DNA from: a bacterium
GTDB lineage: Bacteria; Auribacterota; UBA3054
DNA: 64,000 nt
NCBI GenBank assembly: GCA_017616555.1
Contig: JAFZXZ010000032.1
Location: 115,862 to 179,861, forward strand
Direction of reading: 5' to 3'
The notes beneath the pieces were generated by a model. It was not told the origin of the DNA, searched no databases, and was given only the letters and a program-made list of their open reading frames with translations. Below, piece by piece: positions 23,268 to 57,800 of this stretch. Every line of letters begins with the position of its first letter. Within the stretch, counting starts at the first letter, position 1. Made by a program: the position numbers and the translations under genes.

Positions 23268-24917
23268 ATGAAACGCACACTATTTCTTACGGCGCTTCTT
23301 TTGAGCGCGTCCGTCTTCGCGGCCGAAGTGGCTAAGCCGGCCAAGGGCAACGCAGCCCCTCCTGCACCCCCGAACCCCAATCTGATGACCAGCGCGGACT
23401 TCACTCCGAACGTCAAGGTCGACAATCTTTGGGACGGCGTGAACAAAGACGGCGAGATCCAGCTTTTGCCCATAGAGATCTACCATTTCAAGGAAGACAG
23501 GAACGTTGGTCCCGGCAGACTCGGTAATCCGATCTGCTATGCCGACGCTGACAACGACGGCAGAATGGAGCTCGTGGCCGCTTCCGAAAGCGGTTTCGTC
23601 TGGATCTTCAAGAGAGAAGGCAAGACCTGGCCTCCCAAATTTTCTTCCGGGCGTTTTCTCCATGCTTTCTTAGGCTGCGCCGTAACTGGTGTTGACGTCC
23701 ACGACATGGACGGCGACGGCATCCAGGACATAGTTGTGGGCGCCGACAACGGCCGCATCTTCTTCCTGAAAGGCAAAGGCGAAGGTCTCTTCAACGTTGC
23801 GGAAAACGCGCAGATCCAGCTGAACGGCAACGGCGAGAACGGTGAACTGTACACCGGGCGCCAGTTATCTCCCAGGATCTACGACTGGAACGGCGACGGC
23901 AACTACGATCTTATCTATGGCGAGGGCTCCTATTCGGCCAACGCCATCTACATCCTTTTCAACAAGGGCAGCAGCTCCGCCCCCAACTTCCGCAACCAGA
24001 AGCCGCAGTGGCTCGCCTACGGCTACGGCAGGGAACAATTGGCCCCCACGATCGCGGACTTCAACGGCGACGGCAAGCCTGACATTCTGACGGGCGCCCT
24101 TGACGGCGGCCTTCATCTTTATATGAACGTCGGCTTCAAGGAAGATCAGACCGACGCCCAGTATCTTTTGGAATACAAGGGCGAAGCCAAATTCGCCGAC
24201 ACGCCGAAGAAATTCTTCGGAATCGGCACGCGCCCCTTCCTTGCCGACCTCACCGGAAACAAAAAGCCTGATCTTCTCATCAGTTCCGTTGACGGGAAAG
24301 TTTACGCCTCCCAGTTCGTGGGTCCGATGGAGCGCTGCGAATTCACAAAGCCCGTCATAGTGAAAGGCCAGGATAGGCTGAAACCCTATTTCGGCCCCAT
24401 GAAAAAGACCTGGTACGGGCATCATGAGGACGACTCATACACCTATTGGAACCCGGCGCGCTACGGCGGCAACACCGGCTGCAACGTCAAATTTATGAGC
24501 GAGACCGACGTTGAGACCGGAGCGAAGTACAGTTTCGCGAGGGCCTATTACGAGGACGGCTACACGGGAACGGACTCCTACCTCGCCAAGTATTACGACG
24601 ACACCATAAACAACATGGATTACGGCACGACCTACCGCCTTTCCTTCAAGGTCAGGGGCCGCGCGGTCAAGCCAATTCTGCACATAAGGCAGATCTATGA
24701 AAAGATCGTGAAAGGCGACACCGAATACGACGAGAGCTTCACGAAGGATTTCGACCTTTCCGCCGGCAACGAGTGGACCGACTGCTCTTTCCTTTACACT
24801 CCGGAATTCGTGAGCAACCGCCGCGAACATCCGGCCGTTTCCGTAAGCTTCAAGATGAACCCCGGCGCGACAAACGCTTTCTTAGATATCAGAGACATTA
24901 AATTCCAAAGGCAGTAA
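23268..24917 (+). CDS. secreted FG-GAP-repeat beta-propeller protein with C-terminal beta-sandwich domain (paralog 1)
   Basis: It has a signal peptide. Repeated DxDxDG FG-GAP-like motifs are present (DADNDGRMELV, DMDGDGIQDIVVG, YDWNGDGNYDLIYG, ADFNGDGKPDIL). Confidence 0.65.
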   Translation: MKRTLFLTALLLSASVFAAEVAKPAKGNAAPPAPPNPNLMTSADFTPNVKVDNLWDGVNKDGEIQLLPIEIYHFKEDRNVGPGRLGNPICYADADNDGRMELVAASESGFVWIFKREGKTWPPKFSSGRFLHAFLGCAVTGVDVHDMDGDGIQDIVVGADNGRIFFLKGKGEGLFNVAENAQIQLNGNGENGELYTGRQLSPRIYDWNGDGNYDLIYGEGSYSANAIYILFNKGSSSAPNFRNQKPQWLAYGYGREQLAPTIADFNGDGKPDILTGALDGGLHLYMNVGFKEDQTDAQYLLEYKGEAKFADTPKKFFGIGTRPFLADLTGNKKPDLLISSVDGKVYASQFVGPMERCEFTKPVIVKGQDRLKPYFGPMKKTWYGHHEDDSYTYWNPARYGGNTGCNVKFMSETDVETGAKYSFARAYYEDGYTGTDSYLAKYYDDTINNMDYGTTYRLSFKVRGRAVKPILHIRQIYEKIVKGDTEYDESFTKDFDLSAGNEWTDCSFLYTPEFVSNRREHPAVSVSFKMNPGATNAFLDIRDIKFQRQ

Positions 24918-24923
24918 AAGAAG

Positions 24924-26531
24924 ATGACAAATTTGGAAAAGAAACTATTGTTCGCATCCTTTTTGGTTCTTTCTCTTTCCGTTTCGTTTCTGTATGCAGA
25001 GGAGGAAGAGAAGGACAAACCGAAAGAGCACCTTTTGGACAAGAAATTCATCAGCAAGGACAAATACGAAACGCGCGAGAACCTTTGGGACGGCGTGACC
25101 AAGGAAGGCTTCCTTAAGGTCAAAGGCGGAGATCTCTATACCTTAAAGCACGGAGCTTACAGCGGCTGGTACAGAGTCGGTCCCTCCGTTTGTTTCGCCG
25201 ACGTTACGGAAGACGGCAAACCGGATCTGGTGGTCGGCGGCGAGGGCGGCTTCATCTGGTACTTTGACCAGACCAGCAAAAACGGCACCTTCCCTCCGCG
25301 CTTTTCATTCGGCAAGTTTTTGCACAATCAGTACTCGAAGTGGTCGCTTCTGCACGTTGACGTCCAGGATTTCGAGGACGACGGCAAGAACGATATCGTC
25401 TATACTTCGGAGAATGGCGAGATATATGTCATTAGGGCCTTGGGCAACGGATTCTTCAAAACTTCCGCCGCGACGCTTGTTTTCGGAAAAGAGCCTTACC
25501 GCGGGCGCGGCCTGACGCCTCGCTTTTACGACTGGGACAACGACGGCAATTTCGACATGTATTTCGGCGACGCCTCTTATTCCGCCAACGCTGTTTACTT
25601 TTTCAAGAACTGGGGGACGAAATCCAATCCGCGCTTCAAGCCCGAGGATGACAGGCAGTGGCTGGCTTACGGCTACGGCCGCGAGATGCTGGACCCCTGC
25701 CACGGAGATCTGAACGGCGACGGCAAGATGGACATTCTTGTCGCCGATTCCGATGGCAAGCTGCTCTTGTACTATTCCCCGGAACAGCCTGATCCCGAAA
25801 ACCCGAAACTTCTGAATTACGCCGGCGAACTGACTGTCAACGGCTCCACGACGCCAGTAGGCGAGGGAGCACGCTGTTACCTTTATGATATAGACAGGGA
25901 CGGCCTCCTCGACCTTCTGCTAAGCGATAAGGAGGGTTATTTTTACGTTGCCCGCAACATCGGCGTAAAGCAACGCCCGGCCTTCGGGCCAACCACCCAG
26001 CTGAAAGGCAAGGACACTTACAAGCCTTACAAAGCGCTGGCTGGTTGGAACGAAGAGCAGCTCTGGGACCGCAACGCCGCTCCGGTCGCCGATCTGAAGA
26101 GCGAGACGGTTATCGTTGACCGCATGTCCGGACAGACAGCCCTCATCGACTATGTTCACATTACTTACGCGGACGGCTATATCGGCGGCACCGGCGGCAT
26201 CCACAAATCTCACCTCAAGGTCTTTGACGGCAAGAATTATCGCATTAGCTTCAAGGCCAGAGGCCGCGGCGGCAAAGGCCGCATACGTTTTGAGCAGGAT
26301 TGGGAGGACGAGATAAGAGGGGACACCCTTGAGCCGACCAAGATCGACAGGAGCGAGGATTTTTCCATCAGCGAAGATTTTGCCGACTTGAGTTTCGTCT
26401 ATCACGCCGAGCACTCCAGCAAAACAATAAAAAGCGACACTATAGGACTGGCGCTGCACTTCTACCTGGACGGCCAGGCTACCAACTGTTTCCTCGACAT
26501 CTACGACGTGACCATGACCAGGGAAAACTGA
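24924..26531 (+). CDS. secreted FG-GAP-repeat beta-propeller protein (paralog 2)
   Basis: It has the same architecture and collinear motifs as the upstream gene (YDWDNDGNFDMYFG, GDLNGDGKMDILV). It has a signal peptide. Confidence 0.65.
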   Translation: MTNLEKKLLFASFLVLSLSVSFLYAEEEEKDKPKEHLLDKKFISKDKYETRENLWDGVTKEGFLKVKGGDLYTLKHGAYSGWYRVGPSVCFADVTEDGKPDLVVGGEGGFIWYFDQTSKNGTFPPRFSFGKFLHNQYSKWSLLHVDVQDFEDDGKNDIVYTSENGEIYVIRALGNGFFKTSAATLVFGKEPYRGRGLTPRFYDWDNDGNFDMYFGDASYSANAVYFFKNWGTKSNPRFKPEDDRQWLAYGYGREMLDPCHGDLNGDGKMDILVADSDGKLLLYYSPEQPDPENPKLLNYAGELTVNGSTTPVGEGARCYLYDIDRDGLLDLLLSDKEGYFYVARNIGVKQRPAFGPTTQLKGKDTYKPYKALAGWNEEQLWDRNAAPVADLKSETVIVDRMSGQTALIDYVHITYADGYIGGTGGIHKSHLKVFDGKNYRISFKARGRGGKGRIRFEQDWEDEIRGDTLEPTKIDRSEDFSISEDFADLSFVYHAEHSSKTIKSDTIGLALHFYLDGQATNCFLDIYDVTMTREN

Positions 26532-29040: not shown

Positions 29041-30333
29041 ATGAACAAGAAAACTTTAAGAGACGTTGATCTCAAAGGCAAAAGAGTCGTCATGCGCGTG
29101 GACTTCAACGTCCCGATGGCCAAGGACGGCTCCGGCAAAATAACGGATGACACCCGTATCGTGGCCGCTCTCCCCAGCATCAAGTACGTGCTTGAACAGG
29201 GCGGATCTTTGGTACTCATGAGCCATCTCGGCCGTCCCAAAGGCAAAGGCTATGAACCGGAATTCACCCTGAAGCCCGTGGCCGAAGCGCTGAGCGCCAA
29301 GCTGGGCCTTGAAGTGAAATTCGTTCCCGACTGCATGGCCGCTGACGACGTTGTCAAAGCCCTGAAGCCCGGCGAAGTCGCTTTGCTTGAAAACACCCGC
29401 TTCTACAAAGCCGAAGACGGCAAAGTCAAAAAAGACGACGAGAAGAAGGGCATCCATCTGACGGAAGAGGAATACCAGCAGAAGAAAGCCGAACTGAAGA
29501 CCAAGCGGGCTGAAATGGCCAAGAAGCTTGCTTCTTACGGCGACCTTTACTGCAACGACGCTTTCGGCACGGCCCACCGCGCCCACGCCAGTACGGCCGT
29601 CATCGCCGATTATCTTAAACCCGCCGTTTCCGGCTTCCTGCTTGAAAAAGAGATCCAGTTCCTGGGCGACGCCGTCGAGAATCCCGTGCGTCCCTTCGTC
29701 GCTATTTTGGGCGGCGCCAAGGTCAGTGACAAACTGGCGGTCGTTAAAGCCCTTCTCGCCAAAGTTGACACCCTCATCATCGGCGGCGGCATGGCCTACA
29801 CTTTCAAGAAAGCCCAGGGCATGAAGATCGGCAACTCTCTCTGCGAAGACGAACAGGTCGCCTACTGCAAGGATATGCTTGACGAAGCCGAGAAGAAAGG
29901 CGTCAAGATCCTTCTGCCTGTCGACAACCTCATCGCCGACAAATTCCCCGAGACCAAAGACGCTTCCGACATCCAGATCAAGGAATGCGAAGGCGATATT
30001 CCTGACGGCTGGATGGGCCTCGATATCGGCCCCAAGAGCGTCGCTCTCTTCAGCGAAGCTCTGAAAGGCGCCAAGACCGTGGTCTGGAACGGCCCGATGG
30101 GCTGCTTTGAGTTCGCCCCCTTGTCCAAGGGCACATACGGCGTCTGCGACGCTGTGGCGACCGTCAAGGCTAACGGCGGCGTTTCCATTATCGGCGGCGG
30201 CGACTCTGTCAGCGCTGTCAAGAAGAGCGGCAAGGCTGCCGAGATGAGCCACGTCTCCACCGGCGGCGGCGCTTCCCTTGAATTCCTGGAAGGCAAAGTC
30301 CTCCCCGGCGTGGCCTGCCTCGACGAAAAGTAA
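29041..30333 (+). CDS. pgk: phosphoglycerate kinase with ~30-aa charged insertion
   Basis: The PGK signature is present (RVDFNVP, GGGASLEFLEGKVLPG). It is 430 aa versus the typical ~395. The insertion is KVKKDDEKKGIHLTEEEYQQKKAELKTKRAEM. Confidence 0.9.
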   Translation: MNKKTLRDVDLKGKRVVMRVDFNVPMAKDGSGKITDDTRIVAALPSIKYVLEQGGSLVLMSHLGRPKGKGYEPEFTLKPVAEALSAKLGLEVKFVPDCMAADDVVKALKPGEVALLENTRFYKAEDGKVKKDDEKKGIHLTEEEYQQKKAELKTKRAEMAKKLASYGDLYCNDAFGTAHRAHASTAVIADYLKPAVSGFLLEKEIQFLGDAVENPVRPFVAILGGAKVSDKLAVVKALLAKVDTLIIGGGMAYTFKKAQGMKIGNSLCEDEQVAYCKDMLDEAEKKGVKILLPVDNLIADKFPETKDASDIQIKECEGDIPDGWMGLDIGPKSVALFSEALKGAKTVVWNGPMGCFEFAPLSKGTYGVCDAVATVKANGGVSIIGGGDSVSAVKKSGKAAEMSHVSTGGGASLEFLEGKVLPGVACLDEK

Positions 30334-33338: not shown

Positions 33339-33463
33339 ATGAATTCCTATTATTTTTAGACTGTTTATAAATCTAAACTATACCACAGCGAGGAAGAAAA
33401 AGCAACTTGACATTGGCCTCCGGAAGCGTTTGGAAGGGATTTGCGAAACATGTTTGCCTCTTT

Positions 33464-33502
33464 TTTGCTAAAATATATTAAAGTATGTACAGAGAGGTTT
33501 TT
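33464..33502 (+). promoter_or_regulatory. extended -10 promoter plus RBS leader of FGE-domain gene 1
   Basis: ttTGcTAAAATata is an extended -10 element. agagaggtttttATG is the RBS and start. It is near-identical to 36568..36607. Confidence 0.4.
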
Positions 33503-36500
33503 ATGAAACGCTTTTTTTCTTTCGCCGCCATCATTTTCACGGCCAGCTCGCTTTTTGCCGGATCTATTTGTACCCAGAAAGTAGTGACAGCGCAGGGTTT
33601 TGTGAAAGGCTCCACAACGGTCAGTTTGAGCGGGCAGATGACGGAATCCGCCATGGACGGTATTGCCGGAGGCGAAACCATAGCCGTCTATAACTCTCTC
33701 GACAGTTATTTGGTTTTTCCAACGCTGCTTCAAAAGACCAAGACAGGTTACGGAAAAAAGTTCAACACAAAGAACGTTTCCGTAAACGCGAAGAACGGAA
33801 AATTCCAGTGGACGGAAAAGGACGTCACAAAATATCTTTGCTTCGCTGTTGGAAGAGAAAGAATAAAGCCTGACAAAGCCACTTTAAAATCCAGCGGCAC
33901 GGTGGACACCGCGGATCTTGCAAAACTTGACGACAAAAAGCTAACCGTTTACGATTATTCCTGCGCGGAAAAAGGGCTGGGGCATCTCGCTTCGCTATCT
34001 TGTCCCCTTGAGAAGAAAGGCAAAAATTACAAGTATTCAAAAAAAGATCAGGATCTGCAGGTGAAGTTGTCCGCCAACTCCAACGGCAAGGTAAGCGCTT
34101 CTTATAAACTTCAGCCTAACGTCGCTTCTCCGGCTTTTATAGACAACGAGTATGTGTTTACGAACAAATACGATTATTCTTTGGTAATTGTCGGCGAAGG
34201 CGAAGTGTATTCCGATTTCTACGGACCTGATCAAGTCGAATTCGACGTAACCAAAAACAGTGACAAGTTTCGCTTTTTTTACTGCAAAGGGGTAAATGTC
34301 ACGAACAACCTCATGACTTTGGAGCTGAATGAAGACACTGAGGTCACGGCGGTTTTCGGAAACTATGATTTTAGGCTAAACGTAATTGGCGGCGGTTCTG
34401 CCAAATTTGAATTCACCGGGCCGGACGAGGTGGCGATTGGAGCGCTGAAAGACAGTGCGCCTTTCCGTCACTTCTTGGTGAACGGGAGAATATATACCAG
34501 CAGTAACATTCATCTTATGCTGACAAAGGATACGGTCGTGGAAGCGGTCTTCGGGACTTATGATTTCACGACGAGGGTCATTGGAGGCGGCTACATAAAT
34601 TATGAATTCACCGAACCGGATCTCGTGAAGATCAAAGCGCTGGATGGAAACAAGTTCTTCCGTTATTTCTTGGTGAACGGTCAGAAACGCACGGAAAAGT
34701 CGCTGCAGCTTTCGCTGCAGGAAAACACCGTGGTCGAGGCGGTCTTTGGAAATTACGACCTCTCGTTCGAAATTGAAGGAAACGGTTCGGTGGATTATGA
34801 ATTCACAGGACCGGACAATGTGGAAGTGAGAGTTCTGGATGGCGACGCGCCGTTCCGTAACTTTACGGTCAACGGAGAATATTGCGCGGATGAGACCATG
34901 TCTCTTGTCTTGTGGGAAGACACGGTGGTTAAAGCTGTTTTTGGAACTTACGCCTTCAGAACGGAAGTTTTAGGCAACGGATCGGAAGAGCATGAATTTT
35001 TGGGACCGGATCTAGTGGAAGTCCGCGTTCCCCAAAACAGCGCCTTCTGGCGCTACTTTACGGTGAACGGCGAAACACGCAAGAACACGACGACGCTGCT
35101 TCTTTATTTGAAAGAAGACACCGTGGTCGAGGCGGTCTTCGGAATATACGCCTTATATTTGGGTGTCGTCGGCCCCGGGCAGGTGAGCCGCGAGTTCACA
35201 GGGCAGGATGAAGTTGAGATAAAAGTGACCGAGGGCAGCGATCTTTTCCGCTTCTTTAATGTGAACAGGATAATTTGCAGCGATAGTTCGATCCAGCTCT
35301 CTTTGGAGCATGACACGGTTGTCAATGCGGTTTTCGGCAGATACCGTCTCTCGGTGGAGATCGTTGGCGACGGCTCTCTGGATTACGAGTTTAAAGGGCA
35401 GGACGATGTGGAAATAAAAATCCCCGAGGATGCGGAGCACTTCCGTTATTTAACGGTCAACGGAAACAAAAGCTTTGAAAAGAATTTGCTTGTCAAAATG
35501 ACAGGGGACACCGCGGTCAAAGCGTTCTTTGGGAAATATGACTGTGAAACTGTCGTTGTTGGAAGCGGGATCTTAAAAAGCGAGTTCACGGGAGCCGACG
35601 AGATAACTCTCCGCGCGATCAACGAAGAAGATATATTCAGCCATTTTGAATGGAATGGCTGCGTCACAAATCTGTCGCCTGTTTCCATCCAGCTTGTTTC
35701 CGACACCGTCATCACCGCGGTGTTTTCGGCGGCCAATTATATGGTAGTTGATCTAAGCCGCGGAACTTCGGCCAAAACATGGTCGTCCAGGATCACGACT
35801 GACAAACCGGATGTCACGAGCGACACATGCAGAGGCGAAGAACTTTGGTTAAGGTATGTGCCGCCCGGCGTCTACATGATGGGATCGCCCCAAAACGAAG
35901 CGGGCCGCGGAAATAGGGAAGATCAGCATGAGGTAACTATAACCAAAGGTTTTTACATAGGTATTTTTGAAGTGACTCAAAAGCAATTCAAATACATCAC
36001 GGATACGAGTTATCACTCAGACAAGGAAGCAACCTATCCAGTCCGCAGTGTTAACTATAATCAGTTGAAAAGCGATGCCAGCATTACTTCGAAATCCGTC
36101 ATTAAAGTCATGAGAGACAAAACAAGGCTTCAGTTTGACCTTCCAACTGAAGCACAATGGGAGTATGCCTGCCGCGCTGGCACGACCACGGCCTACAACA
36201 GCGGAAACAACATGGGTGACAAAGGCTTCGACCTAACGGAGATCTGCATAGATATTTATGTCGGGTCGCCCCAGAAAGTCGGAATTAAAAAGCCTAACAA
36301 ATGGGGCCTTTACGATATGCACGGCAACGTTTGGGAATGGTGCCTTGACTGGTATACCGACAATTTGGGTTTCGATTCTGTCGTCGACCCAACTGGCCCT
36401 GAAACGGGCGAAAAGAAAGTTTTGCGCGGCGGTTGTTATCGGAGCTGGGAGAATGAGTGCCGCTCCGCTTACAGATCCTATCTCGAGCCAGACCATTATG

Positions 36501-36556
36501 TTTCTCCTAATGAGGATCACCGTTTCGGCTTCCGATTCGTAATCAACGAAAAGTAG
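33503..36556 (+). CDS. giant secreted protein: N-terminal domain, 8 InlB-B-like repeats, C-terminal FGE-sulfatase (SUMF1-like) domain
   Basis: It has a signal peptide (MKRFFSFAAIIFTASSLFA). There are 8 repeats of ~66 aa (YDF..VIGGG...EFTGPD.VE......FR.F.VNG......L.L.EDTVVEAVFG). The C-terminus carries FGE-family motifs (WGLYDMHGNVWEWCLDWY, RGGCYRSWENECRSAYR, HRFGFRFV). Confidence 0.7.
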   Translation: MKRFFSFAAIIFTASSLFAGSICTQKVVTAQGFVKGSTTVSLSGQMTESAMDGIAGGETIAVYNSLDSYLVFPTLLQKTKTGYGKKFNTKNVSVNAKNGKFQWTEKDVTKYLCFAVGRERIKPDKATLKSSGTVDTADLAKLDDKKLTVYDYSCAEKGLGHLASLSCPLEKKGKNYKYSKKDQDLQVKLSANSNGKVSASYKLQPNVASPAFIDNEYVFTNKYDYSLVIVGEGEVYSDFYGPDQVEFDVTKNSDKFRFFYCKGVNVTNNLMTLELNEDTEVTAVFGNYDFRLNVIGGGSAKFEFTGPDEVAIGALKDSAPFRHFLVNGRIYTSSNIHLMLTKDTVVEAVFGTYDFTTRVIGGGYINYEFTEPDLVKIKALDGNKFFRYFLVNGQKRTEKSLQLSLQENTVVEAVFGNYDLSFEIEGNGSVDYEFTGPDNVEVRVLDGDAPFRNFTVNGEYCADETMSLVLWEDTVVKAVFGTYAFRTEVLGNGSEEHEFLGPDLVEVRVPQNSAFWRYFTVNGETRKNTTTLLLYLKEDTVVEAVFGIYALYLGVVGPGQVSREFTGQDEVEIKVTEGSDLFRFFNVNRIICSDSSIQLSLEHDTVVNAVFGRYRLSVEIVGDGSLDYEFKGQDDVEIKIPEDAEHFRYLTVNGNKSFEKNLLVKMTGDTAVKAFFGKYDCETVVVGSGILKSEFTGADEITLRAINEEDIFSHFEWNGCVTNLSPVSIQLVSDTVITAVFSAANYMVVDLSRGTSAKTWSSRITTDKPDVTSDTCRGEELWLRYVPPGVYMMGSPQNEAGRGNREDQHEVTITKGFYIGIFEVTQKQFKYITDTSYHSDKEATYPVRSVNYNQLKSDASITSKSVIKVMRDKTRLQFDLPTEAQWEYACRAGTTTAYNSGNNMGDKGFDLTEICIDIYVGSPQKVGIKKPNKWGLYDMHGNVWEWCLDWYTDNLGFDSVVDPTGPETGEKKVLRGGCYRSWENECRSAYRSYLEPDHYVSPNEDHRFGFRFVINEK
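34169..35745 (+). repeat. 8 in-frame tandem coding repeats (~198 nt each)
   Basis: The protein-level periodicity is YD(F/L)...AVFG, repeated 8 times. The repeats are diverged at the nucleotide level. Confidence 0.6.
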
Positions 36557-36567
36557 GTGATCAAATT

Positions 36568-36607
36568 TTTGCTAAAATATACGCATAATCCGAATAGAGA
36601 GGTTCTT
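36568..36607 (+). promoter_or_regulatory. extended -10 promoter plus RBS leader of FGE-domain gene 2
   Basis: tttgctaaaatata...atagagaggttcttATG is conserved with the paralog leader. Confidence 0.4.
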
Positions 36608-39085
36608 ATGAAACGCATTCTTGTTTTCGCCGCCATCCTTTTCATGGCTAATTCGCTCTTCGCCGGCTCCGTTTTGACCCAGAGAGTCGTAAGGGCCCAG
36701 GGCTTTTTGAAAGGCTCCACAACGATCAGCTTGAGCGGACAGCTTGACCAAGCCTTCTTGGACAGCCTGGCTGCCGGAAACGGCATGGCGATCTATAATT
36801 ACCTGGACAGCTATTTGACTTTCCCGATTTTGCTTCCCAAGACCAAGGGGGGTTACGGTACGAAATCCAAAACTCAGAGCATTTCCGTCAGCACGAAGAA
36901 CGGCAAGTTTTCCTGGACGGAAAAAGACGTGACGCCTTACTTCGCTTTCGCCAGCGGCTTTGAAAAAATTAAACCTCTCAAGGCAACTTTCAAATCATCC
37001 GGCACGCTACAGGGCGGCGGCCTTGACGATCTCAGCACGAAGAAATTTGTGGTCTTCGACTTTCCTTGCGATCGCCAGGGCTTAGGTTACCTCGGTTCCT
37101 TGGCCTTCTCGCCGGAAAAGAAAGGCAAAAACTACAAGTTTACCTACAAAGAGGATAATTGGCAGGTGAAGGTCTCCGCCAATGCCAAGGGCAAGGCCAC
37201 AGCTTCCTACAAGCTGCCGCCCGATGCAGCCTCTCCCGCGTTTGTCACAGACGAGTATGTTTTCACCAACCTATATGATTACACTTTCGAGCAGATCGGC
37301 GAAGGAACAGTCGAGCACGGTTTCGTCGGCCCTGATCAGGTCGAACTGCAAGTGACCGAAAACAATGACAAATTCCGCTATTTCCTCTTCAACGGGGAAA
37401 AGATCACAAACGACTATCTCCTGGCCGACCTTGAGCAAGACTCCGAGTTCACAGCCGTCTTCGGAACGTACGACCTCACTGTGGACGTTGTTGGGGAAGG
37501 TAACGTTGTGACTGATTTCATCGGCCCTGATGAAGTAGTTGTCACGATTGGAGAAAGTGAGGGGATTTACCGTTACTCATATGTCGACGATGAAAAAACC
37601 ACGGAGACGAGCCTGACGCTTCAGCTTGAGAAGGACACGCAGTTCACCGCGGTCTTCGGAACATACGATCTTGCCGTAGGCACGGTGGGCGACGGATCTG
37701 TGGAGGTTGAATTTGTCGATCAAGATAAGGCTGAGGTGCGCATTGTGGAACAGGGCGGCCTCTACCGCTACGCACTGGTCGGCGGAGAGAGGACCACGGA
37801 GACGAGCTTCACCATTCAGCTTGACGGCAACACCGACATCACCGCTGTTTTCGGACAATACGCCCTTTCCGTTACCGTAGTTGGCGAGGGTTCGGTGGAT
37901 TACGAATTCATAGGAGCTGACAAAGTGGAAGTCAGAGTTACGGAGGGCGACGCGCTTTTCCGTTATTTTGATGTGAATGGCGTAAAATATTATGACAACC
38001 CGATGACCGTTGTGCTTACGAAAAACACCGAAGTCGAAGCGGTCTTTGGGACTTATAAACTCGAAGTGGTGATTTCTGGAAAAGGTTCTGCTGATACAAA
38101 GTTCACAGGCACTGACAGCGTTAGGATCACTCCCATTGGCGGAGAGGAAGCTTTCCAAAGCTTCTCCTGGAATGATTGCGTTAGTTATGAATCTCCTCTG
38201 CTCCTCGATCTGATGGCGGATACTGTTGTCACAGTGACTTTTGTCAAGGTGAATTATCTGGTCGTTGATATCAGCGGCGGATATACGGCGGAAAGCTGGC
38301 CGCATAAGATCTCAGAATCCGGTCCGGACGTTGGAAGCGACGTCTGCAGGACTAAGGAATTGTGGCTCAAATTTGTTCCCTCCGGTGAATTCAGAATGGG
38401 TTCTCCAGAGAGCGAGTACGGCCGCGGAACCAGGGAAGTTGCGCATCAGGTAACTCTGACCAAGGGTTTTTACATCGGCGTTTTCGAATTGACCAGAAAG
38501 CAGTACGCGCTGATCGCGGGAACAGTTCCCGCGAGTTCTGATGATGACCTCTGCCCTGTCACTAAGGTGACTTTTGATTCTTTGAGAGGAACATCCAAAG
38601 GAGCTAATTGGCCTGCTGACGATGAAGTTGACGCCGGGTCCTTTATGGGCATATTAAGAGCGAAGACCGGCTTGCGTTTCGACCTGCCCACAGAGGCGCA
38701 ATGGGAATACGCTTGCCGTGCCACGACGACTACGGCTTTCAACAACGGCAAGAATCTGGACGACGACGATCTCAATTTGTTTGAAATAGCCTATTACAAG
38801 GGAAACGCTAGTTATCCTCAGAAAGTCGGCAGTCTGAATCCCAATGCCTGGGGCCTTTACGACATGCACGGCAATGTCTGGGAATGGTGCCTCGACTGGT
38901 ATACGAATGATTTGGGCACAGCCCCTGTTACTGATCCGGTCGGTTTGGCAACAGGCTATGAGAAAACATTACGCGGCGGCAGCTTCAATGACGAAGCGAG
39001 CGCCTGCCGTTCCGCTTACCGAGCTCATACGGAAACAGACCATACAATGGACCGTCTCGGCTTCAGGCTGGTAATCAATCAGTAA
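36608..39085 (+). CDS. giant secreted protein, paralog: N-terminal domain, 5 InlB-B-like repeats, C-terminal FGE-sulfatase domain
   Basis: The N-terminal ~220-aa domain is collinear with paralog 1. There are 5 repeats. The C-terminus has WGLYDMHGNVWEWCLDWY and RGGSFNDEASACRSAYR, with a single Cys in the FGE catalytic region. Confidence 0.7.
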   Translation: MKRILVFAAILFMANSLFAGSVLTQRVVRAQGFLKGSTTISLSGQLDQAFLDSLAAGNGMAIYNYLDSYLTFPILLPKTKGGYGTKSKTQSISVSTKNGKFSWTEKDVTPYFAFASGFEKIKPLKATFKSSGTLQGGGLDDLSTKKFVVFDFPCDRQGLGYLGSLAFSPEKKGKNYKFTYKEDNWQVKVSANAKGKATASYKLPPDAASPAFVTDEYVFTNLYDYTFEQIGEGTVEHGFVGPDQVELQVTENNDKFRYFLFNGEKITNDYLLADLEQDSEFTAVFGTYDLTVDVVGEGNVVTDFIGPDEVVVTIGESEGIYRYSYVDDEKTTETSLTLQLEKDTQFTAVFGTYDLAVGTVGDGSVEVEFVDQDKAEVRIVEQGGLYRYALVGGERTTETSFTIQLDGNTDITAVFGQYALSVTVVGEGSVDYEFIGADKVEVRVTEGDALFRYFDVNGVKYYDNPMTVVLTKNTEVEAVFGTYKLEVVISGKGSADTKFTGTDSVRITPIGGEEAFQSFSWNDCVSYESPLLLDLMADTVVTVTFVKVNYLVVDISGGYTAESWPHKISESGPDVGSDVCRTKELWLKFVPSGEFRMGSPESEYGRGTREVAHQVTLTKGFYIGVFELTRKQYALIAGTVPASSDDDLCPVTKVTFDSLRGTSKGANWPADDEVDAGSFMGILRAKTGLRFDLPTEAQWEYACRATTTTAFNNGKNLDDDDLNLFEIAYYKGNASYPQKVGSLNPNAWGLYDMHGNVWEWCLDWYTNDLGTAPVTDPVGLATGYEKTLRGGSFNDEASACRSAYRAHTETDHTMDRLGFRLVINQ
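37274..38260 (+). repeat. 5 in-frame tandem coding repeats (~198 nt each)
   Basis: It has the same repeat family as in 34169..35745. Confidence 0.6.
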
Positions 39086-39106: not shown

Positions 39107-39137
39107 ATCCCGGAGTTTCGCTCCGGGATTTTTTTTT
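39107..39137. terminator. bidirectional rho-independent terminator
   Basis: aaaaaaatcccggag-tttcg-ctccgggatttttttt sits between convergent genes. Confidence 0.75.
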
Positions 39138-39825
39138 AGCGAGTGAAGAGAAGGCCCAATTCGAAGAGGGCATAGGCGGGAAGGAAAAGCAAAAGCTGGC
39201 TGACTACGTCCGGGGGAGTGGCGATCGCCGCAAGGATCAATAGGGCGACTATGACGTAGGGTCGCGCTTTTTTCATTTTGGCGTGGTCGATGATCCCGAA
39301 GCGGTTGAGGACGATAACTACAAGCGGAAGCTGGAAGAAGAGTCCGCCTGCCAGCATGAGTCCTCCTGCGAGTCCCAGGAAATTCGCGAGCCCGAAGGTG
39401 GGCTGAAGAGTGGGGCTGGCGAAACTGAAGGCGAAGCGCATCAGGATGGGAAGAATGACGTAGAAAATGAAGGCGGCCCCGGCGATGAAGAGAAGGGAGG
39501 AAAAGACAACGGCTTTGCCAAGAACTTTCTTTTCTTTCTTGTAGAGAGCCGGAGCGACGAATGTCCAGAATTGCCAGGCGATGAAAGGGAAAGCGATGGC
39601 GAAGGACATGATGGCGCCCATTTTTAGTTCCGCGATGAAGGCCTCCATTGGAGAGAAATAATGGAGAGTCGCCTGCTCGGGTGGAAGAAGGAGATTCGTG
39701 AAAACGGGGATCAGTTTGCCGGCTAAAAACCAGCAGACTGGGAAAAGAACAGCGACCGCTAAGAGGGAGCGGAGAAGGACTTTTCTCAGGGCTTCAAGGT
39801 GTCCTAGAAAAGAGTTTTCTTCCAC
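39136..39825 (-). CDS. tatC: Sec-independent translocase subunit TatC
   Basis: HLEALRKVLLRSLL and six TM segments are present. The proposed GTG start at 39825 lies just after the tatA stop. The track's upstream K/R-rich extension is the antisense frame of tatA. Confidence 0.75.
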   Translation of the reverse strand: MEENSFLGHLEALRKVLLRSLLAVAVLFPVCWFLAGKLIPVFTNLLLPPEQATLHYFSPMEAFIAELKMGAIMSFAIAFPFIAWQFWTFVAPALYKKEKKVLGKAVVFSSLLFIAGAAFIFYVILPILMRFAFSFASPTLQPTFGLANFLGLAGGLMLAGGLFFQLPLVVIVLNRFGIIDHAKMKKARPYVIVALLILAAIATPPDVVSQLLLFLPAYALFELGLLFTR

Positions 39826-39829
39826 AGTT

Positions 39830-40033
39830 TCAGTTTTCTTTCTTTTCTTCGGTTTTGGAAGAGCTGTCGTCGGACGCGACTTCTTCCACTTCGGTCTCCA
39901 CTTCGTCTTTGGCTTTCTGGAATTCCTTTTTGGCTTTGCCCAGAGCCCTGGCCAGTTCGGGAATGCGCTTGGCGCCAAAAAGGAGGAGCACCACAATGAT
40001 GATAAGGATTATTTCTGGATAGCCTAAACTCAT
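39830..40033 (-). CDS. tatA: Sec-independent translocase subunit TatA/E
   Basis: The N-terminal TM (IILIIIVVLLLFGAKRIPELARALGKA) and an amphipathic helix are present. Length is 67 aa. Confidence 0.8.
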   Translation of the reverse strand: MSLGYPEIILIIIVVLLLFGAKRIPELARALGKAKKEFQKAKDEVETEVEEVASDDSSSKTEEKKEN

Positions 40034-45045: not shown

Positions 45046-46263
45046 TCAACGGCAAAGCTCAAGCAGCGCTTCGCTCAGAATGGCGGTCGTATTCTTTGAG
45101 GAGAAGAAAGAGCTCTCCTCTTCCGTATAGCGGTAAGCTTTCAAATCACAGTCCTGTTCCCAGGCTTTTGCGAGCGTTTCAAGTTTTTCCGCGATGTCGT
45201 TAATGTCAGACTGTTCGGCGGTCAGGCCGTGAAGCTTTTCGACGTATTTCCAGGTCGGGCTGCCTTTGTCCGAAACGGCCAGGATAGGCTTGCCGGAGCC
45301 GACGTAGTCTGGCAGTTTTGAAAGCAGGGAATTTTTGACGACGTCGATGGAAAAGAGCGCGGTGGCTTTTTTCATCCATCCGAGGCTTTCGAAGTAGGGA
45401 ACTTTCGCTATGAAGTCAAGGTTTTCTTCCAGACCTAGCGCTTTTGCTTCGCTACGGTACTTGCCTGGATCAAGGCCTACGAAATGCGCGGTTATTTGCT
45501 TGCGGAATCTCGGCTCTTTGTCCAAAAAGATCTTGAGGGCTTGGAAAAAGTTTAATGGATTATGCCTGCCGTAGAAGGAGCCGACGTGAACGAGGTGAAG
45601 TTTGTCAAAAAAAGGCTCGACTTCAGGATAGAGCGTCTTGTCAAAGCAGTGGGGGACGGTTAGCCCTTTTTTCTGAATTTCGGGAGAGTATTTCCCTAAG
45701 ACAAGCTTTTGCGTCGCTTCGGTCGTGAAGCAAAGCTTGTCAGCCAATTCAACTACTGAGCGTTCCTGGACTCGGTTCACAGCGGAAATAGGCCAAAATC
45801 TTCTGTGGTAGGCGTTGTCCACCCAGGGATCGCTGAAATGGGCCAGCCATGGCAGATTGTAAAGTTTCTTTATTTCCCTGGCGAGAAGATGGCTCGACCA
45901 CTGCAGGCCGAAGGAAGCCAGGCAGTCGAAACTTTCTTTTTCAAGCAGTTTTTTCAGTGCTTTTTTGCCAGCAAAACGCCAGACATATTTGTCATCCGGC
46001 ATGCCGAGGGAAAGGCTGGCCGTAACGTTGGAGAAAAGCCAGTTCTCGAAGGTATAGCCCGGAATGAGCTTTATGCTTTTGTCAAGTTTTTCGCCAAGTG
46101 CCGGGTCGAGCTTGTCTTTCAAAAGCTTGGGATCGGCAGTATAGACCGTAAGCTTCCAGCCCGCTAATGAAAGCGCGTTGGCGGTCTTCAATAGCTGAAG
46201 CGAGCGCGCCAGAAGCTGTGGCGGGAAAATGAATGAGATTATCAAAAGCCTTTTATTCGGCAT
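45046..46263 (-). CDS. glycosyltransferase (GT-B fold, GT4-like)
   Basis: Its size and two-domain organisation fit. It is the last gene of the gcvT-membrane protein operon. Confidence in the family is moderate. Confidence 0.5.
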   Translation of the reverse strand: MPNKRLLIISFIFPPQLLARSLQLLKTANALSLAGWKLTVYTADPKLLKDKLDPALGEKLDKSIKLIPGYTFENWLFSNVTASLSLGMPDDKYVWRFAGKKALKKLLEKESFDCLASFGLQWSSHLLAREIKKLYNLPWLAHFSDPWVDNAYHRRFWPISAVNRVQERSVVELADKLCFTTEATQKLVLGKYSPEIQKKGLTVPHCFDKTLYPEVEPFFDKLHLVHVGSFYGRHNPLNFFQALKIFLDKEPRFRKQITAHFVGLDPGKYRSEAKALGLEENLDFIAKVPYFESLGWMKKATALFSIDVVKNSLLSKLPDYVGSGKPILAVSDKGSPTWKYVEKLHGLTAEQSDINDIAEKLETLAKAWEQDCDLKAYRYTEEESSFFSSKNTTAILSEALLELCR

Positions 46264-47524
46264 TTTTCCTGGAAAAGCAAAGAGCGAGCGTTAGGAGGGA
46301 AAGCAGCGGAAGGAAAACGATGTGCGAATAATCGCAGATGATCGAGCTAAGGTCGCGCTTACTGAAAACGAAAGTCACTTTGTGACGGCCCTTGGGAACA
46401 AGGACCGCCTGCTGCATAAGGTTGCAGCGGACGACGTCTGTTTTCACGCCGTCAACTAGAGCTTTCCAACCTTCCAAGGGTTCGCAAACGAGGACCGCAT
46501 AGCCCGGGAAGTCGAAATTCGCCTGCAGCTCAACTTTTTCCGGCGTGAAATTCACAAGGGAAACAGTGTTTGTGCCATCGCCTTTTTCCGTCGGTTCGCC
46601 AGATTGAATGAGGCAGACGGCGACAGGATCGGTCTCGGCTTTGTTCATAACTGCAAGCGCATCCTCAATTTTGGATATAAGGACGGCGCTTTGCGGAGCG
46701 TAGAAGCGAGGCAGAGTTTTCTCCAGTTCGCCGATAGTCTGGCGCTGGCCCTGGAAGCTGAAATTGCCGACAGGCTTATAGGCAACTCCTTCGCTCTTTA
46801 GATATGCGAGTTCCTCCGCGCCGCCCAAAACGTAGCGGACGTTCGCGTAGAGCAGGCGCTTTGCGATTTTGAGATCGTCGCCGTAGAAGAACGCTTTGCG
46901 CCAGACGCTGGGACGTGAATCCGCCGGCACGTCGATCGTAGGAATATCGTAAAGCGGGAAATACTCCGAGATCCAGGGATTGTAGAAAGCCTTGTTTATG
47001 GCGTGCACTCTGTAGAGCTTGTCAAGCTTCGCAAGCTTTTTGACGCCGTCCGGGCAGGAGAGATCGCGGTAATCGGGAATGATGTAGCGCGTCGCAGTGT
47101 ACAGGCCCTGAATGATAAGAACGGCAATGATCGCGCCGAGAACGAAGGCGCGCTTCTCTTTTCCTATATTGGCTCCGGAGCGAAGCAGGAGAATGGCGGC
47201 GCCGACAACGATCAAAGCGACGCTTCCCCAAAGCACAGCCCGAGAGCGCTGGGCGACGATCAAGCCAAGCTTACCGTCCGTCATCTGGGTAAGCTGGTTG
47301 TCTATCGCGCTCTTGGGCACGCCGCGCTGCCTAAGGATCTGGACCTGGCTCTGGATCATGGGATTCTGATTGAGGTCAGAGATCATTTCAGCGCGTTTAT
47401 TTGAAGAGAAACTTCCGCTTACGACGGAGAGGAAAATTAGCGTTCCCCAAAGCAGCAATACAAGCCAGAAAATAGTGAAGAGCTTGTCGCCGTTGCCTAA
47501 ATTTTGCCAGAAGCGCTTAAGCAT
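46253..47524 (-). CDS. YfhO-like membrane protein, C-terminal part
   Basis: It has three N-terminal TM segments, a large extracytoplasmic domain and a final TM. The 8-nt ATGCTTAA overlap with the upstream ORF suggests translational coupling. Confidence 0.4.
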   Translation of the reverse strand: MLKRFWQNLGNGDKLFTIFWLVLLLWGTLIFLSVVSGSFSSNKRAEMISDLNQNPMIQSQVQILRQRGVPKSAIDNQLTQMTDGKLGLIVAQRSRAVLWGSVALIVVGAAILLLRSGANIGKEKRAFVLGAIIAVLIIQGLYTATRYIIPDYRDLSCPDGVKKLAKLDKLYRVHAINKAFYNPWISEYFPLYDIPTIDVPADSRPSVWRKAFFYGDDLKIAKRLLYANVRYVLGGAEELAYLKSEGVAYKPVGNFSFQGQRQTIGELEKTLPRFYAPQSAVLISKIEDALAVMNKAETDPVAVCLIQSGEPTEKGDGTNTVSLVNFTPEKVELQANFDFPGYAVLVCEPLEGWKALVDGVKTDVVRCNLMQQAVLVPKGRHKVTFVFSKRDLSSIICDYSHIVFLPLLSLLTLALCFSRKNAE

Positions 47525-48755
47525 TGCTTTCCTCCCGGCAGAGTTTTGAAAATCCCAGGGCGCTCAAAGCTGAAAGGGCGAGCATTACCGGGTAGAGGAA
47601 CTTTATGGGGTTGCGCATGTCGCTCATCATCGGCAGATGATAGAAGATCCTGTACGGTCCGAAGCCCGAGGCGCTCCCCGGCGAAACGTCGCAGTAGCGT
47701 CCGTAGGAAAGCAAAAGCCCGATCAAAAAAACGATCGTCCAGAAGATCGCCAGGCCTTTTTCCTTCTCAAAGAAGAGAGAGGCGATGGCCAGGAGCGCCA
47801 GAAGAATTACGACGGCGCCTTCAGCTTGAGTGTTCAGGGAGAAATTCTCCATCCCGCCCTTGGGCCAGGACAGGCTTTGCCCGATCCTGCCGTAGTAGGG
47901 TCCGGTTTCGTCCTGGTTGCCCCAGCCCATGATGCCGGGGAAGACGAGCGAACCGGTTTCCGTAATCGGCAGCGACCACTGCGTCGCCCAGTCCCATTTC
48001 TGCAAGGGCGTTTCCGTCACAGTCTGGACTTCCGCGCCCTTTGCGCTCTTCGAGATCCCCAGCACGTAGAAGAAAGCGTGGGAGCCGAACGAGGCGAAGA
48101 CCAGGGCGGCTAGAACAAATCCCAAAAAGAGTTTGCCGAAGGCTTTTTTCTCCCAAGTCTTCCAGAGCAGGAAGAGCCCGAAAAAGAAAAGCACGATGAG
48201 CATGATGAATCCGATGTCGAACTGGTAGCGCAGGACCAGGGCAGAAAGCACGCCGCTCCAGACCATCGCCACGACGCTTCTTTTGTTAAGCGCTTTCGCC
48301 AGAGCGAAGAGGTCGAACATAAAGGCGGCCCACATCATGAACGTTCCGGCGTGACCACTAAAAACGCAGGTGATGTAGTGGCCCGAGAAAAGCAAAGAAA
48401 GCGCGCCGACAAAGGCTGGTAGGGCGGAAAGCCCCGTCTCCAGAAGGAAAAAGTAAAAGCCCAGCGCCGCCAAAAAGGCGCAGAGCGAAAAGACTACGGT
48501 GTTGTAAAAAGCGGGCGGCACAAACCGCCTGATAGGGGAATAGACTTCGTAGTTGGCCGTGTGTCCGTTTCCCAGGTAGCCGTCCTCCGACCACATTACT
48601 CCGCTCGGTTTGGCGGCTATCTGGGCTTTCCTTACGATCTGATGGAAAGGGGAATCGTTGGCCACTACGGGTTTCGGCGGCAGCAGCACGTTGTGAAAGA
48701 CTGCCGCCGTAACGACAAGAAGACCTAAGATGGAAAGAAGATGTTTGCGCATCAA
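47517..48755 (-). CDS. YfhO/ArnT-like polytopic membrane protein, N-terminal part
   Basis: It has about ten TM helices. Together with 46253..47524 it would give ~835 aa, the length of an intact YfhO-type protein. Confidence 0.4.
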   Translation of the reverse strand: MMRKHLLSILGLLVVTAAVFHNVLLPPKPVVANDSPFHQIVRKAQIAAKPSGVMWSEDGYLGNGHTANYEVYSPIRRFVPPAFYNTVVFSLCAFLAALGFYFFLLETGLSALPAFVGALSLLFSGHYITCVFSGHAGTFMMWAAFMFDLFALAKALNKRSVVAMVWSGVLSALVLRYQFDIGFIMLIVLFFFGLFLLWKTWEKKAFGKLFLGFVLAALVFASFGSHAFFYVLGISKSAKGAEVQTVTETPLQKWDWATQWSLPITETGSLVFPGIMGWGNQDETGPYYGRIGQSLSWPKGGMENFSLNTQAEGAVVILLALLAIASLFFEKEKGLAIFWTIVFLIGLLLSYGRYCDVSPGSASGFGPYRIFYHLPMMSDMRNPIKFLYPVMLALSALSALGFSKLCREESNA

Positions 48756-50586: not shown

Positions 50587-51942
50587 GTGAAAAGAAGTGT
50601 GTTTTACCGATGTGTGTGGGGTTTAAGGCTCCTTCTTTCCGCCCTGACGGTCGCTTGGGGCCTTTTCGTCTTCATTGGCTCAAATGAGTTTCTTCAAAAC
50701 TTGCCGATGTGCCAGCTGGGGCCGGCCGTTTTGCGCTCCTTCTTTGCTTTCGGTCTTAGCGCTATTGCGGTCGTTCTCACCATAGTGCTTCTGACGCTTT
50801 TCTTCGGCCGCCTGTTCTGCTCCTTCATGTGTCCTTTGGGCTCAGCTTTGAGTTTTATCGCGCTCTTTTTCAAAAAAGGGAAGAAAAAGATCTATCCCTT
50901 TATCGGCGGATCTATACTCGGCTTGTTCATCGGTTCTTTGGTTTTCGGAGTAGCCTTCGTTTTCCGTCTGCTCGACCCTTATTCGCTCTTCGGCCGAACG
51001 CTTACCGCGCCGCTTTGGTTCGGCGTTATTTTCCTTGCCGTTATTCTTGCCGTAACGTTTTTCTTCGGCAGGATCTTCTGCGCCAGCATATGTCCAGTCG
51101 GCCTGCTTCTCAGCCTTATCGCCAGAAGATCTGTTTTCGGCATGATCATTCCCAAAGAGTGCGTGCACTGCGGCAAATGCGAGAAGGTCTGCCCGACAGG
51201 CTGCATAGACCAAAAGCAAAGCAAAGTTAGCAACGCATACTGCGTCATGTGCCTGGATTGCCTGACGGTCTGCCCTAAGACCGGACCGACTTTTTCTTTC
51301 CTTTGGAAAAAATCGCAAGAGGAGAAAGCGCCGAACTTGGAGCGCAGACAATTTCTTATTTCCCTTTCCGTGGGCGCCGCGGTCGGCTTGATGGGCGGCG
51401 GACTTTTCAAGGCGGTCTCGAAGAAGCGCGCCAAAGAAGAAGGCGAAAAGGAACTTTTGGTAAGGCCTCCCGGCGCCATAACAGAAAGCTCTTTCTTAGC
51501 GAAGTGCACCGCCTGCGGGCTATGCGTTTCAAAATGCCCGCAGAAAGTGCTGACCTTGGGCCCGGCCGGTTTCGGCGCTCCGCGCCTTGATTTCAAAAAG
51601 GGCTCCTGCTCGCTTGATTGTACGCTTTGTTCCTCGATCTGCCCGACCGGCGCGCTGAGATCGATCGCGCCTGAAAAGAAGAAAACTTTCGTTATCGGCA
51701 AGGCAAATTTCAATGCAAAGAAATGCATCGTATTCCAGGGCGAAGGAGCCTGCGGGAAATGCGCCGCGTCCTGTCCGACCGCAGCCATAACCTTAAGAGC
51801 CAACGGCGCGCCGAAACTGGAAGCTGAAGCGTGCCTCGGCTGCGGCAAATGCCAGAATGTCTGTCCTATCGGTGCCATGCATGTCGCCGGCGCAGCGATA
51901 CAACATTATCTAGATGACCTGAACCAAGGAGCCTCACTATGA
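50587..51942 (+). CDS. membrane polyferredoxin, NapH-like N-terminus fused to NapG-like C-terminus
   Basis: There are four TM helices with two CX3CP motifs (CSFMCP and CASICP). Two cytoplasmic-type CxxCxxCxxxCP clusters follow. An internal Tat-like RRQFLISLSVGAAVG segment is followed by four more 4Fe-4S motifs. It has a GTG start. Confidence 0.6.
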   Translation: MKRSVFYRCVWGLRLLLSALTVAWGLFVFIGSNEFLQNLPMCQLGPAVLRSFFAFGLSAIAVVLTIVLLTLFFGRLFCSFMCPLGSALSFIALFFKKGKKKIYPFIGGSILGLFIGSLVFGVAFVFRLLDPYSLFGRTLTAPLWFGVIFLAVILAVTFFFGRIFCASICPVGLLLSLIARRSVFGMIIPKECVHCGKCEKVCPTGCIDQKQSKVSNAYCVMCLDCLTVCPKTGPTFSFLWKKSQEEKAPNLERRQFLISLSVGAAVGLMGGGLFKAVSKKRAKEEGEKELLVRPPGAITESSFLAKCTACGLCVSKCPQKVLTLGPAGFGAPRLDFKKGSCSLDCTLCSSICPTGALRSIAPEKKKTFVIGKANFNAKKCIVFQGEGACGKCAASCPTAAITLRANGAPKLEAEACLGCGKCQNVCPIGAMHVAGAAIQHYLDDLNQGASL

Positions 51943-57797: not shown

Positions 57798-57800
57798 AAA

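Follow-up and report, generated by a model that had tools for sequence, protein, structure and literature searches.

Two neighbouring genes, here called G1 and G2, lie on the forward strand of a 64,000-nucleotide (nt) stretch of bacterial DNA (contig JAFZXZ010000032.1 of assembly GCA_017616555.1, positions 115,862 to 179,861), which is referred to below as the window and numbered from its first nucleotide. With moderate confidence, we read the two products as binding proteins without enzymatic activity that are exported by the Sec route and belong to a lineage-specific multigene family of ruminant-gut Kiritimatiellae. Each protein combines a conserved N-terminal domain, an array of 65-residue repeats and a C-terminal domain with the fold of formylglycine-generating enzyme (FGE) that has lost the catalytic cysteine pair. 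The repeats belong to the Flg_new_2 family and are predicted to fold as beta-sandwiches. Among the relatives of G1 and G2, the number of genes per locus and the number of repeats per gene vary, and the modules of one gene differ strongly in their divergence.

In the working model, the conserved N-terminal domain would hold the exported protein at the cell envelope or dock it to a conserved partner. The 2 to 11 beta-sandwich repeats of the Flg_new_2 type would form a beads-on-a-string stalk, the length of which would set the reach of the head. The head, a domain of the C-type-lectin type (FGE subclass), would bind a ligand at the cell surface through its variable C-terminal loops; the most plausible ligand is a glycan or a protein presented by feed particles, by the mucus of the host or by other cells. 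Diversification would proceed by three routes: genes at the iorA-tatC locus would be duplicated in tandem, arrays would gain or lose whole repeat units, and paralogs would exchange their N-terminal, stalk and head modules by recombination.

Domain architecture of G1 and G2

G1 (positions 33503..36556, + strand) encodes a protein of 1017 residues that comprises a signal peptide, an N-terminal domain, eight repeats and an FGE-fold domain, and G2 (36608..39085, + strand) encodes 825 residues with the same succession of modules and five repeats. The genes correspond to two neighbouring open reading frames (ORFs) of the + strand at 33485-36556 and 36557-39085. Each start is an in-frame ATG downstream of a conserved AGAGAGG ribosome-binding site, and that of G1 was picked by this site together with the N-termini of homologs. 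The resulting sizes are those given in a preliminary description of this DNA, and the gene calls of an independent ENA assembly, in which the 825-residue G2 protein is adjoined by a 1017-residue product, have the same lengths. The exact G2 protein is present on five public contigs. Fusion of the ORFs by an assembly error, which that description had named as a possible objection, is ruled out by a TAG stop codon and 51 nt of spacer between the genes, by the presence of tandem family genes at this locus in metagenome-assembled genomes (MAGs; loci L001-L003) that were assembled independently, and by the occurrence of the same pair in the ENA assembly. G1 and G2 are 45-51% identical by BLASTP (E down to 2e-178), in agreement with the proposal that they are tandem paralogs sharing a signal peptide and an N-terminal domain, the shared domain measuring about 200 residues. 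Their architecture is of the secreted type, as had been proposed, but the accompanying word 'giant' is generous at 825 to 1017 residues.

The C-terminal part of both proteins is formed by an FGE-sulfatase-fold domain (PF03781), located at 35858..36541 in G1 and at 38372..39073 in G2, both on the + strand. This assignment, first made by inspection of the sequence, is confirmed by a search with the PF03781 hidden Markov model (HMM), which gives nearly full-length matches (profile positions 7/8-254 of 255) with E values of about 1e-35 (3.4e-35 for G1 and 1.3e-34 for G2) and scores of 122.4 and 120.5 bits versus a cut-off of 23.3. PF03781 is the only family found in a Pfam scan of the two proteins. 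The closest solved relatives by sequence are human FGE (about 1e-19) and bacterial FGEs (about 1e-14 to 1e-16); further solved relatives are TvpA (PDB code 2y3c; 1e-15), PvdO (1.7e-12) and PorK (about 1e-8).

The loop that follows the RGG motif in human FGE reads SYMCHRSYCYRYRC and contains the catalytic pair C336-x4-C341. In an alignment to the human enzyme, the same loop reads CYRSWENEC in G1 and SFNDEASAC in G2 (GGCYRSWENEC and GGSFNDEASAC with the preceding glycines), and neither contains a C-x4-C arrangement. G2 has a single cysteine at the site of the pair, as had been noted before, and so do most family members. The G1 loop is three residues shorter than that of human FGE and has its two cysteines in a C-x7-C arrangement, not in the C-x8-C spacing initially reported. 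The first of these cysteines is C, S or Y among the orthologs of G1 and is, therefore, not a conserved catalytic residue, and the second belongs to a family-wide C-R-S-A-x-R motif. In a comparison of 83 family heads, conservation is limited to generic fold motifs (LPTEAQWEYACRAG, YDMHGN.WE, RGG, C.S..R and GFR), and the loops vary.

FGE requires O2 and Cu for activity. Among the products of the flanking genes of the window are oxidoreductases of the ferredoxin type and Fe-S proteins, as is typical of an anaerobe, and judging from this gene content the host organism looks anaerobic. The absence of the cysteine pair, the restriction of conservation to generic motifs, the anaerobe-type neighbours and the dependence of FGE on O2 together make sulfatase maturation very unlikely. 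Because no catalytic cysteine pair is present, a non-catalytic or binding role is the better reading of the domain, and the alignment to human FGE thus supports the preference for a non-canonical or binding role expressed in the preliminary description.

The head is preceded by the repeat array, which covers 34169..35731 in G1 and 37274..38248 in G2 (both + strand). Delineation of the arrays in both proteins yields eight and five copies, the numbers originally counted, of a unit that measures 65 residues (195 nt); the tandem repeats are thus as described, except that their length had been put at about 66 residues. Relative to the first repeat, the copies show 28-51% identity, and six positions are invariant (Y1, G9, G11, F17, D21 and F63), which identifies them as real domains and excludes the low-complexity artefact that had been considered. 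Repeat pairs within the window genes do not exceed 62% nt identity. The arrays are, therefore, old, and the difference between eight and five copies is not the result of recent slippage.

The resemblance of the repeats to the InlB B-repeat, proposed at the outset, holds at the level of the Flg_new_2 family but not as a direct Pfam match. No Pfam model, Flg_new and Flg_new_2 included, matches the repeats, whether whole proteins (E <= 0.1) or single repeats (E <= 10) are searched, and searches of PDB sequences with single repeats or with the repeat profile returned nothing. With a profile built from 32 diverse family repeats, a search of 1.84 billion representative proteins recovered 922 of them at E <= 1e-3, mostly long multi-repeat proteins. 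When distant matches were scanned with Pfam, 10 out of 10 proved to be Flg_new_2 arrays (PF18998, 'divergent InlB B-repeat') with E values of 1e-58 to 1e-176. The window repeat profile aligns in register, over positions 1-64, on the Pfam-defined Flg_new_2 units, and the comparison of the two alignments by hhalign gives a probability of 96.6% and an E value of 4.7e-10. These profile comparisons identify the window repeats as a short and divergent form of Flg_new_2 that the current Pfam HMM overlooks.

The window repeats have in common with Flg_new_2 proteins the Y-x-L-x-V and G-x-G-x-V motifs, a mid aromatic pair and a terminal (A/T)-x-F, as well as the occurrence in long tandem arrays of secreted proteins. 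By contrast, the Flg_new_2 units are longer (about 70-73 residues) and carry a GW-F-GW motif, in place of which the window repeats have FRYF-VNG. The AlphaFold2 model of a repeat pair (pLDDT 95) displays two 7-strand beta-sandwiches, and its best PDB fold matches are pilins, PKD domains, FN3 domains and tandem FN3 pairs, so that the repeat is predicted to adopt an all-beta sandwich fold of the immunoglobulin (Ig)/FN3/PKD-like type. InlB is absent among the PDB matches listed for the repeat model; the InlB B-repeat proper has a beta-grasp fold (PDB code 2y5p). A related domain, Flg_new, occurs in proteins of gut microbes that have been described as putatively adhesin-like and proposed as a gut adaptation (PMC9723798).

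Both proteins start with a hydrophobic signal peptide that ends in SLFA before GS. The signal peptide of G1 (33503..33562, + strand), read directly from the sequence, is MKRFFSFAAIIFTASSLFA, followed by GS, and looks like one of the Sec/signal peptidase I type. The N-terminal domain encompasses residues 21-222 of each protein (33563..34168 in G1 and 36668..37273 in G2, + strand). This domain of about 200 residues defines the family and is its best-conserved part. Mean pairwise identity among G1 orthologs amounts to 0.85 in the N-terminal domain, 0.75 in the repeats and 0.68 in the head, and the ratio of nonsynonymous to synonymous substitution rates (dN/dS) of the N-terminal domain is 0.10-0.18. 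The domain has no match in Pfam or NCBIfam, and a profile search with its alignment in a set of 5.8 billion proteins returned only three short fragments.

In related genomes, the N-terminal domain precedes other sets of modules, consisting of no repeats and two FGE domains, of three repeats and two or three FGE domains, or of two repeats and four FGE domains. A member of about 1767 residues in MAG RGIG7520 (L010:9905-15208) contains the N-terminal domain, two repeats and four FGE-fold matches, apparently in tandem. The paralogs of loci L013-L017 have two FGE-fold domain matches and no repeats.

Module and locus variation in the family

The breadth of the family was established with the set of 5.8 billion proteins and with the GTDB species representatives. 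The former contains 89 clusters, the source names of which, where given, say only 'bacterium'. In the latter, seven genomes contain a total of 18 matching loci, no genome more than six, and all of them are ruminant gastrointestinal MAGs (yak, sheep, goat and water buffalo). In the databases searched, the family is found only in ruminant-gut metagenomes and MAGs. The phosphoglycerate kinase (PGK) encoded in the window shares 85-87% identity with proteins that bear the source name Kiritimatiellae bacterium, and on the basis of this protein the window lineage likely belongs to the ruminant-gut Kiritimatiellae. Metagenomes contain PGK homologs of 85-99% identity in abundance, and some of these are likewise named Kiritimatiellae bacterium. 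The PGK gene (29041-30333) encodes 430 residues, of which residues 6-419 match a Pfam model of 379 positions, pointing to inserted residues.

The G1/G2 locus is flanked by iorA and tatC, and relatives have it in a syntenic position. Its one-gene versions carry 5, 2 or 7 repeats, its two-gene versions 8+5 (window), 8+2 or 8+8, and a three-gene version 8+7+7. In the family as a whole, protein lengths step by 65 residues, corresponding to 2-11 repeats. The survey of paralogs and relatives thus reveals variation in repeat number both across the family and at the same locus, where arrays of 2, 5, 7 and 8 units occur.

A gain of whole units can be traced in the second gene of the locus in a sheep-rumen MAG (L003:3621-6743). 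Its eight repeats consist of the five of G2 plus the duplication of a three-unit (585-nt) block, in which repeats 3 and 6 are 83% and repeats 4 and 7 are 74% identical at the nt level, indicative of a fairly recent event. This block duplication indicates that gain or loss of whole units does occur. The expansion and contraction of repeats that the preliminary description had deduced from G1 and G2 is, therefore, borne out by the 2-11 repeats of the relatives and by the duplication in L003, but not by the window pair itself, the arrays of which are old.

The modules of a gene have not diverged in step. In comparisons of the window with L001, L003 and L004, the synonymous divergence (dS) differs up to about 50-fold among the N-terminal, repeat and head modules of one gene pair. 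Between G1 and the first gene of L003, dS is 0.12 in the N-terminal domain, 0.05 in the repeats and 0.44 in the head; between G2 and the second gene of L003, the corresponding values are 0.06, 0.68 and about 3. This mosaic of dS among domains points to recombination that shuffles modules among family members.

Two paralogs of MAG RGIG7520 (L016:12120-12370 and L016:16093-16343) are about 75-80% identical over the FGE domain, and a tract of about 150 nt, which is about 100% identical between them, breaks off close to the RGG codons, at the start of the variable loops. It has the appearance of a gene-conversion tract at the border of the variable region. The tract does not resemble the product of a diversity-generating retroelement (DGR), because the adenines in the patch are identical and synonymous differences are present downstream.

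Proposed binding role and alternative readings

FGE-fold domains that do not catalyse formylglycine formation have been described in other systems. The domain of TvpA from Treponema denticola is reported to lack formylglycine-generating activity and is thought to bind ligands, and the largest class of DGR targets likewise offers a precedent for binding by this fold (PMC5758913). A second non-catalytic precedent is Tsi3, a type VI secretion system (T6SS) immunity protein, which is an FGE-domain protein that binds its effector (bioRxiv 10.1101/2021.05.21.445229).

Several observations weigh against a surface-bound receptor with a diversifying head. No lipobox, LPXTG, PEP-CTERM, C-terminal domain of the type IX secretion system (T9SS) or autotransporter barrel was recognised in G1 and G2, and the two proteins could be periplasmic or freely secreted instead of surface-bound. 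The predicted fold of the N-terminal domain has no PDB fold match, and the genes that flank the pair are housekeeping genes that give no functional hint. The C-terminal loops of G1-type heads display dN/dS values of 0.82-0.89 in two of three ortholog pairs and of 0.40 in the third, compared to 0.19-0.27 in the G1 head core, but the loop values are based on 35 codons and lie below 1. In G2-type heads the loops are conserved (dN/dS 0.04-0.08), and the notion of a diversifying head holds, therefore, at most for the G1 type. Lipoprotein anchoring was also considered and rejected, as the cysteine at position +3 of mature G1 lies outside any lipobox and is not conserved.

A more far-reaching version of the binding-protein reading, which is possible but doubtful, is that the family constitutes a repertoire of surface receptors that is driven by recombination and independent of DGRs. 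Such receptors would consist of a conserved N-terminal anchor with a hitherto undescribed fold, adjustable stalks and interchangeable FGE-fold lectin heads, with cassettes swapped by gene conversion. This proposal builds on the mosaic dS values and on the L016 tract of near identity that ends at the variable loops. If true, uncultured rumen Kiritimatiellae would possess a combinatorial adhesin/receptor system that fulfils the purpose of DGR diversification by another mechanism.

Among the alternatives to binding, the one that survives best is a non-canonical enzyme, which we nevertheless regard as unlikely. The FGE-fold domain would catalyse an oxidative or other reaction that does not depend on the cysteine pair, as is proposed for PvdO and carried out by enzymes of the EgtB type, and the repeats would have no role beyond placing the domain in the periplasm or against a substrate. 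PvdO is indeed the best NCBIfam match (E 1.3e-29 for G2), NCBI names relatives of the proteins 'SUMF1/EgtB/PvdO family nonheme iron enzyme', and the Ca-site-like motif YDMHGNVWEW is retained. However, the scores against the PvdO model (NF051459) are 72.6 and 103.1 bits versus a cut-off of 500, and the scores against other NCBIfam models also fall short (GldK, 71-80 bits versus 350; GldJ, 26-28 versus 458; EgtB, OvoA and SenA, 27-50 versus cut-offs of 360-420). EgtB and OvoA need a DinB-like iron-binding domain, and the Pfam scan found no DinB domain in either protein. In addition, family-wide conservation stops at generic fold motifs and includes no pocket residues, and the organism looks anaerobic.

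It appears quite improbable that G1 and G2 protect the cell, in the periplasm or at its surface, for example as immunity proteins that act like Tsi3 against contact-dependent toxins or as phage-receptor decoys. FGE-domain immunity proteins of the T6SS do act by effector binding, and a multigene family with variable heads would fit an arms race; on the other hand, no T6SS, toxin or defence genes adjoin the pair, and known immunity proteins do not have a long stalk of repeats. PADLOC gave no hit, and membership of a defence system was rejected on this ground.

The match to TvpA and the variable C-terminal loops made a DGR worth testing. G1 and G2 would then be DGR targets like the Treponema protein, their C-terminal loops being rewritten by mutagenic retrohoming. 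TvpA is a close structural-family match, the variable loops are located at the C-terminus as in targets of the FGE-sulfatase type, the largest class of DGR targets (PMC5758913), and the loop residues of G1 orthologs differ strongly. Nevertheless, no second copy of either 3' end that could be a template repeat was found in the window or in the 18 related loci, paralogous coding regions aside, and no reverse transcriptase is encoded by the 46 window ORFs scanned against Pfam. The codon differences in the loops are of the ordinary kind, including synonymous changes at third positions and at non-A sites and not being limited to NNC-type sites, and relatives at 95-96% identity carry identical loops. 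The DGR reading was rejected on these grounds and is, in our estimation, very improbable.

That G1 and G2 are true formylglycine-generating enzymes which mature sulfatases in sulfatase-rich Kiritimatiellae can hardly be credited: the PF03781 match and the source annotations ('formylglycine-generating enzyme required for sulfatase activity') speak for it, but it is refuted by the missing catalytic pair, since C-x4-C is absent from G2 and most of the family and the C-x7-C of G1 is not conserved, and the need for O2 and Cu does not suit an organism that looks anaerobic.

Relation to known systems and other genes of the window

TvpA has the FGE-sulfatase fold and variable residues at its C-terminal end in common with G1 and G2. 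It differs in being diversified by a DGR, whereas G1 and G2 vary by ordinary substitution, paralogy and recombination, and it has neither a Flg_new_2 stalk nor an equivalent N-terminal domain. Human and bacterial FGEs (SUMF1; PDB codes 1y1e, 2q17 and 5nxl) share the fold motifs and the Ca-site-like motif, but G1 and G2 lack their cysteine pair, have a three-residue deletion in the active-site loop and carry large N-terminal additions. PorK/GldK, GldJ and PvdO have the PF03781 fold and likewise lack the cysteine pair; unlike them, G1 and G2 have no lipoprotein signal and no T9SS or pyoverdine context, and their scores against these models fall far below the cut-offs. No T9SS genes are present in the window.

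In intimin and invasin, an anchoring module at the N-terminus is followed by Ig-like repeats in variable number and by a C-terminal receptor-binding head that resembles a C-type lectin. G1 and G2 parallel this arrangement by analogy only. The N-terminal 12-strand outer-membrane beta-barrel of inverse autotransporters is absent from both proteins.

All three building blocks of the proteins are of known kinds. The N-terminal domain, the divergent 65-residue variant of Flg_new_2, the combination of both with an FGE-fold head and the dynamics of the locus are new. We found no description in the literature of this architecture or of FGE-like proteins in rumen Kiritimatiellae. The public names 'formylglycine-generating enzyme family protein' and 'SUMF1/EgtB/PvdO family nonheme iron enzyme' are, for this family, very probably wrong with respect to function, which matters when sulfatase-maturation capacity is inferred for sulfatase-rich bacteria of the Planctomycetes-Verrucomicrobia-Chlamydiae (PVC) group. 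With regard to rumen ecology, the family provides candidate attachment or recognition proteins in an uncultured lineage of Kiritimatiellae.

The two genes also have an upstream motif in common. The sequence TTTTTGCTAAAATAT is located at 33462..33476 (+ strand), 27 nt 5' of the G1 start and followed by the AGAGAGG site, and at 36566..36580 (+ strand), 28 nt 5' of the G2 start and inside the 51-nt spacer. With 0-2 mismatches allowed, the window contains no further match; the two are exact, one for each gene, compared to 0.11 expected by chance. The motif is kept 5' of the same-locus genes in three other MAGs (L001-L003). It reads as an extended -10-like element (TGnTAAAAT), which would be consistent with a promoter role, and its presence before both starts and conservation in the three MAGs suggest that each of the tandem genes may have its own promoter. 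In a simple scan for promoters and terminators, such sites were no more numerous in the window than in shuffled sequences.

Other parts of the window contain further groups of adjoining genes. Three consecutive ORFs of 405, 423 and 412 residues at 45046-48755 (- strand) have no Pfam match and no mutual similarity. At 59659-61113 (- strand), the window encodes a 484-residue protein that starts with a signal-peptide-like sequence and matches lamin-tail domains (PF00932) in two stretches; its gene adjoins VTC-domain and DUF4956 genes (57072-58544). The adjoining genes at 23268-24917 and 24924-26531 both encode FG-GAP repeat (beta-propeller) proteins (PF13517/PF01839) and may represent a second tandem pair. 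Finally, a tandem pair of paralogs at 51939-53165 and 53169-54419 encodes aldo/keto-reductase proteins that carry 4Fe-4S domains at the C-terminus and have twin-arginine translocation (TAT) signal peptides. The pair lies directly downstream of the gene for a multi-ferredoxin-domain protein (50587-51942) and about 12 kb downstream of tatC (39136-39996).

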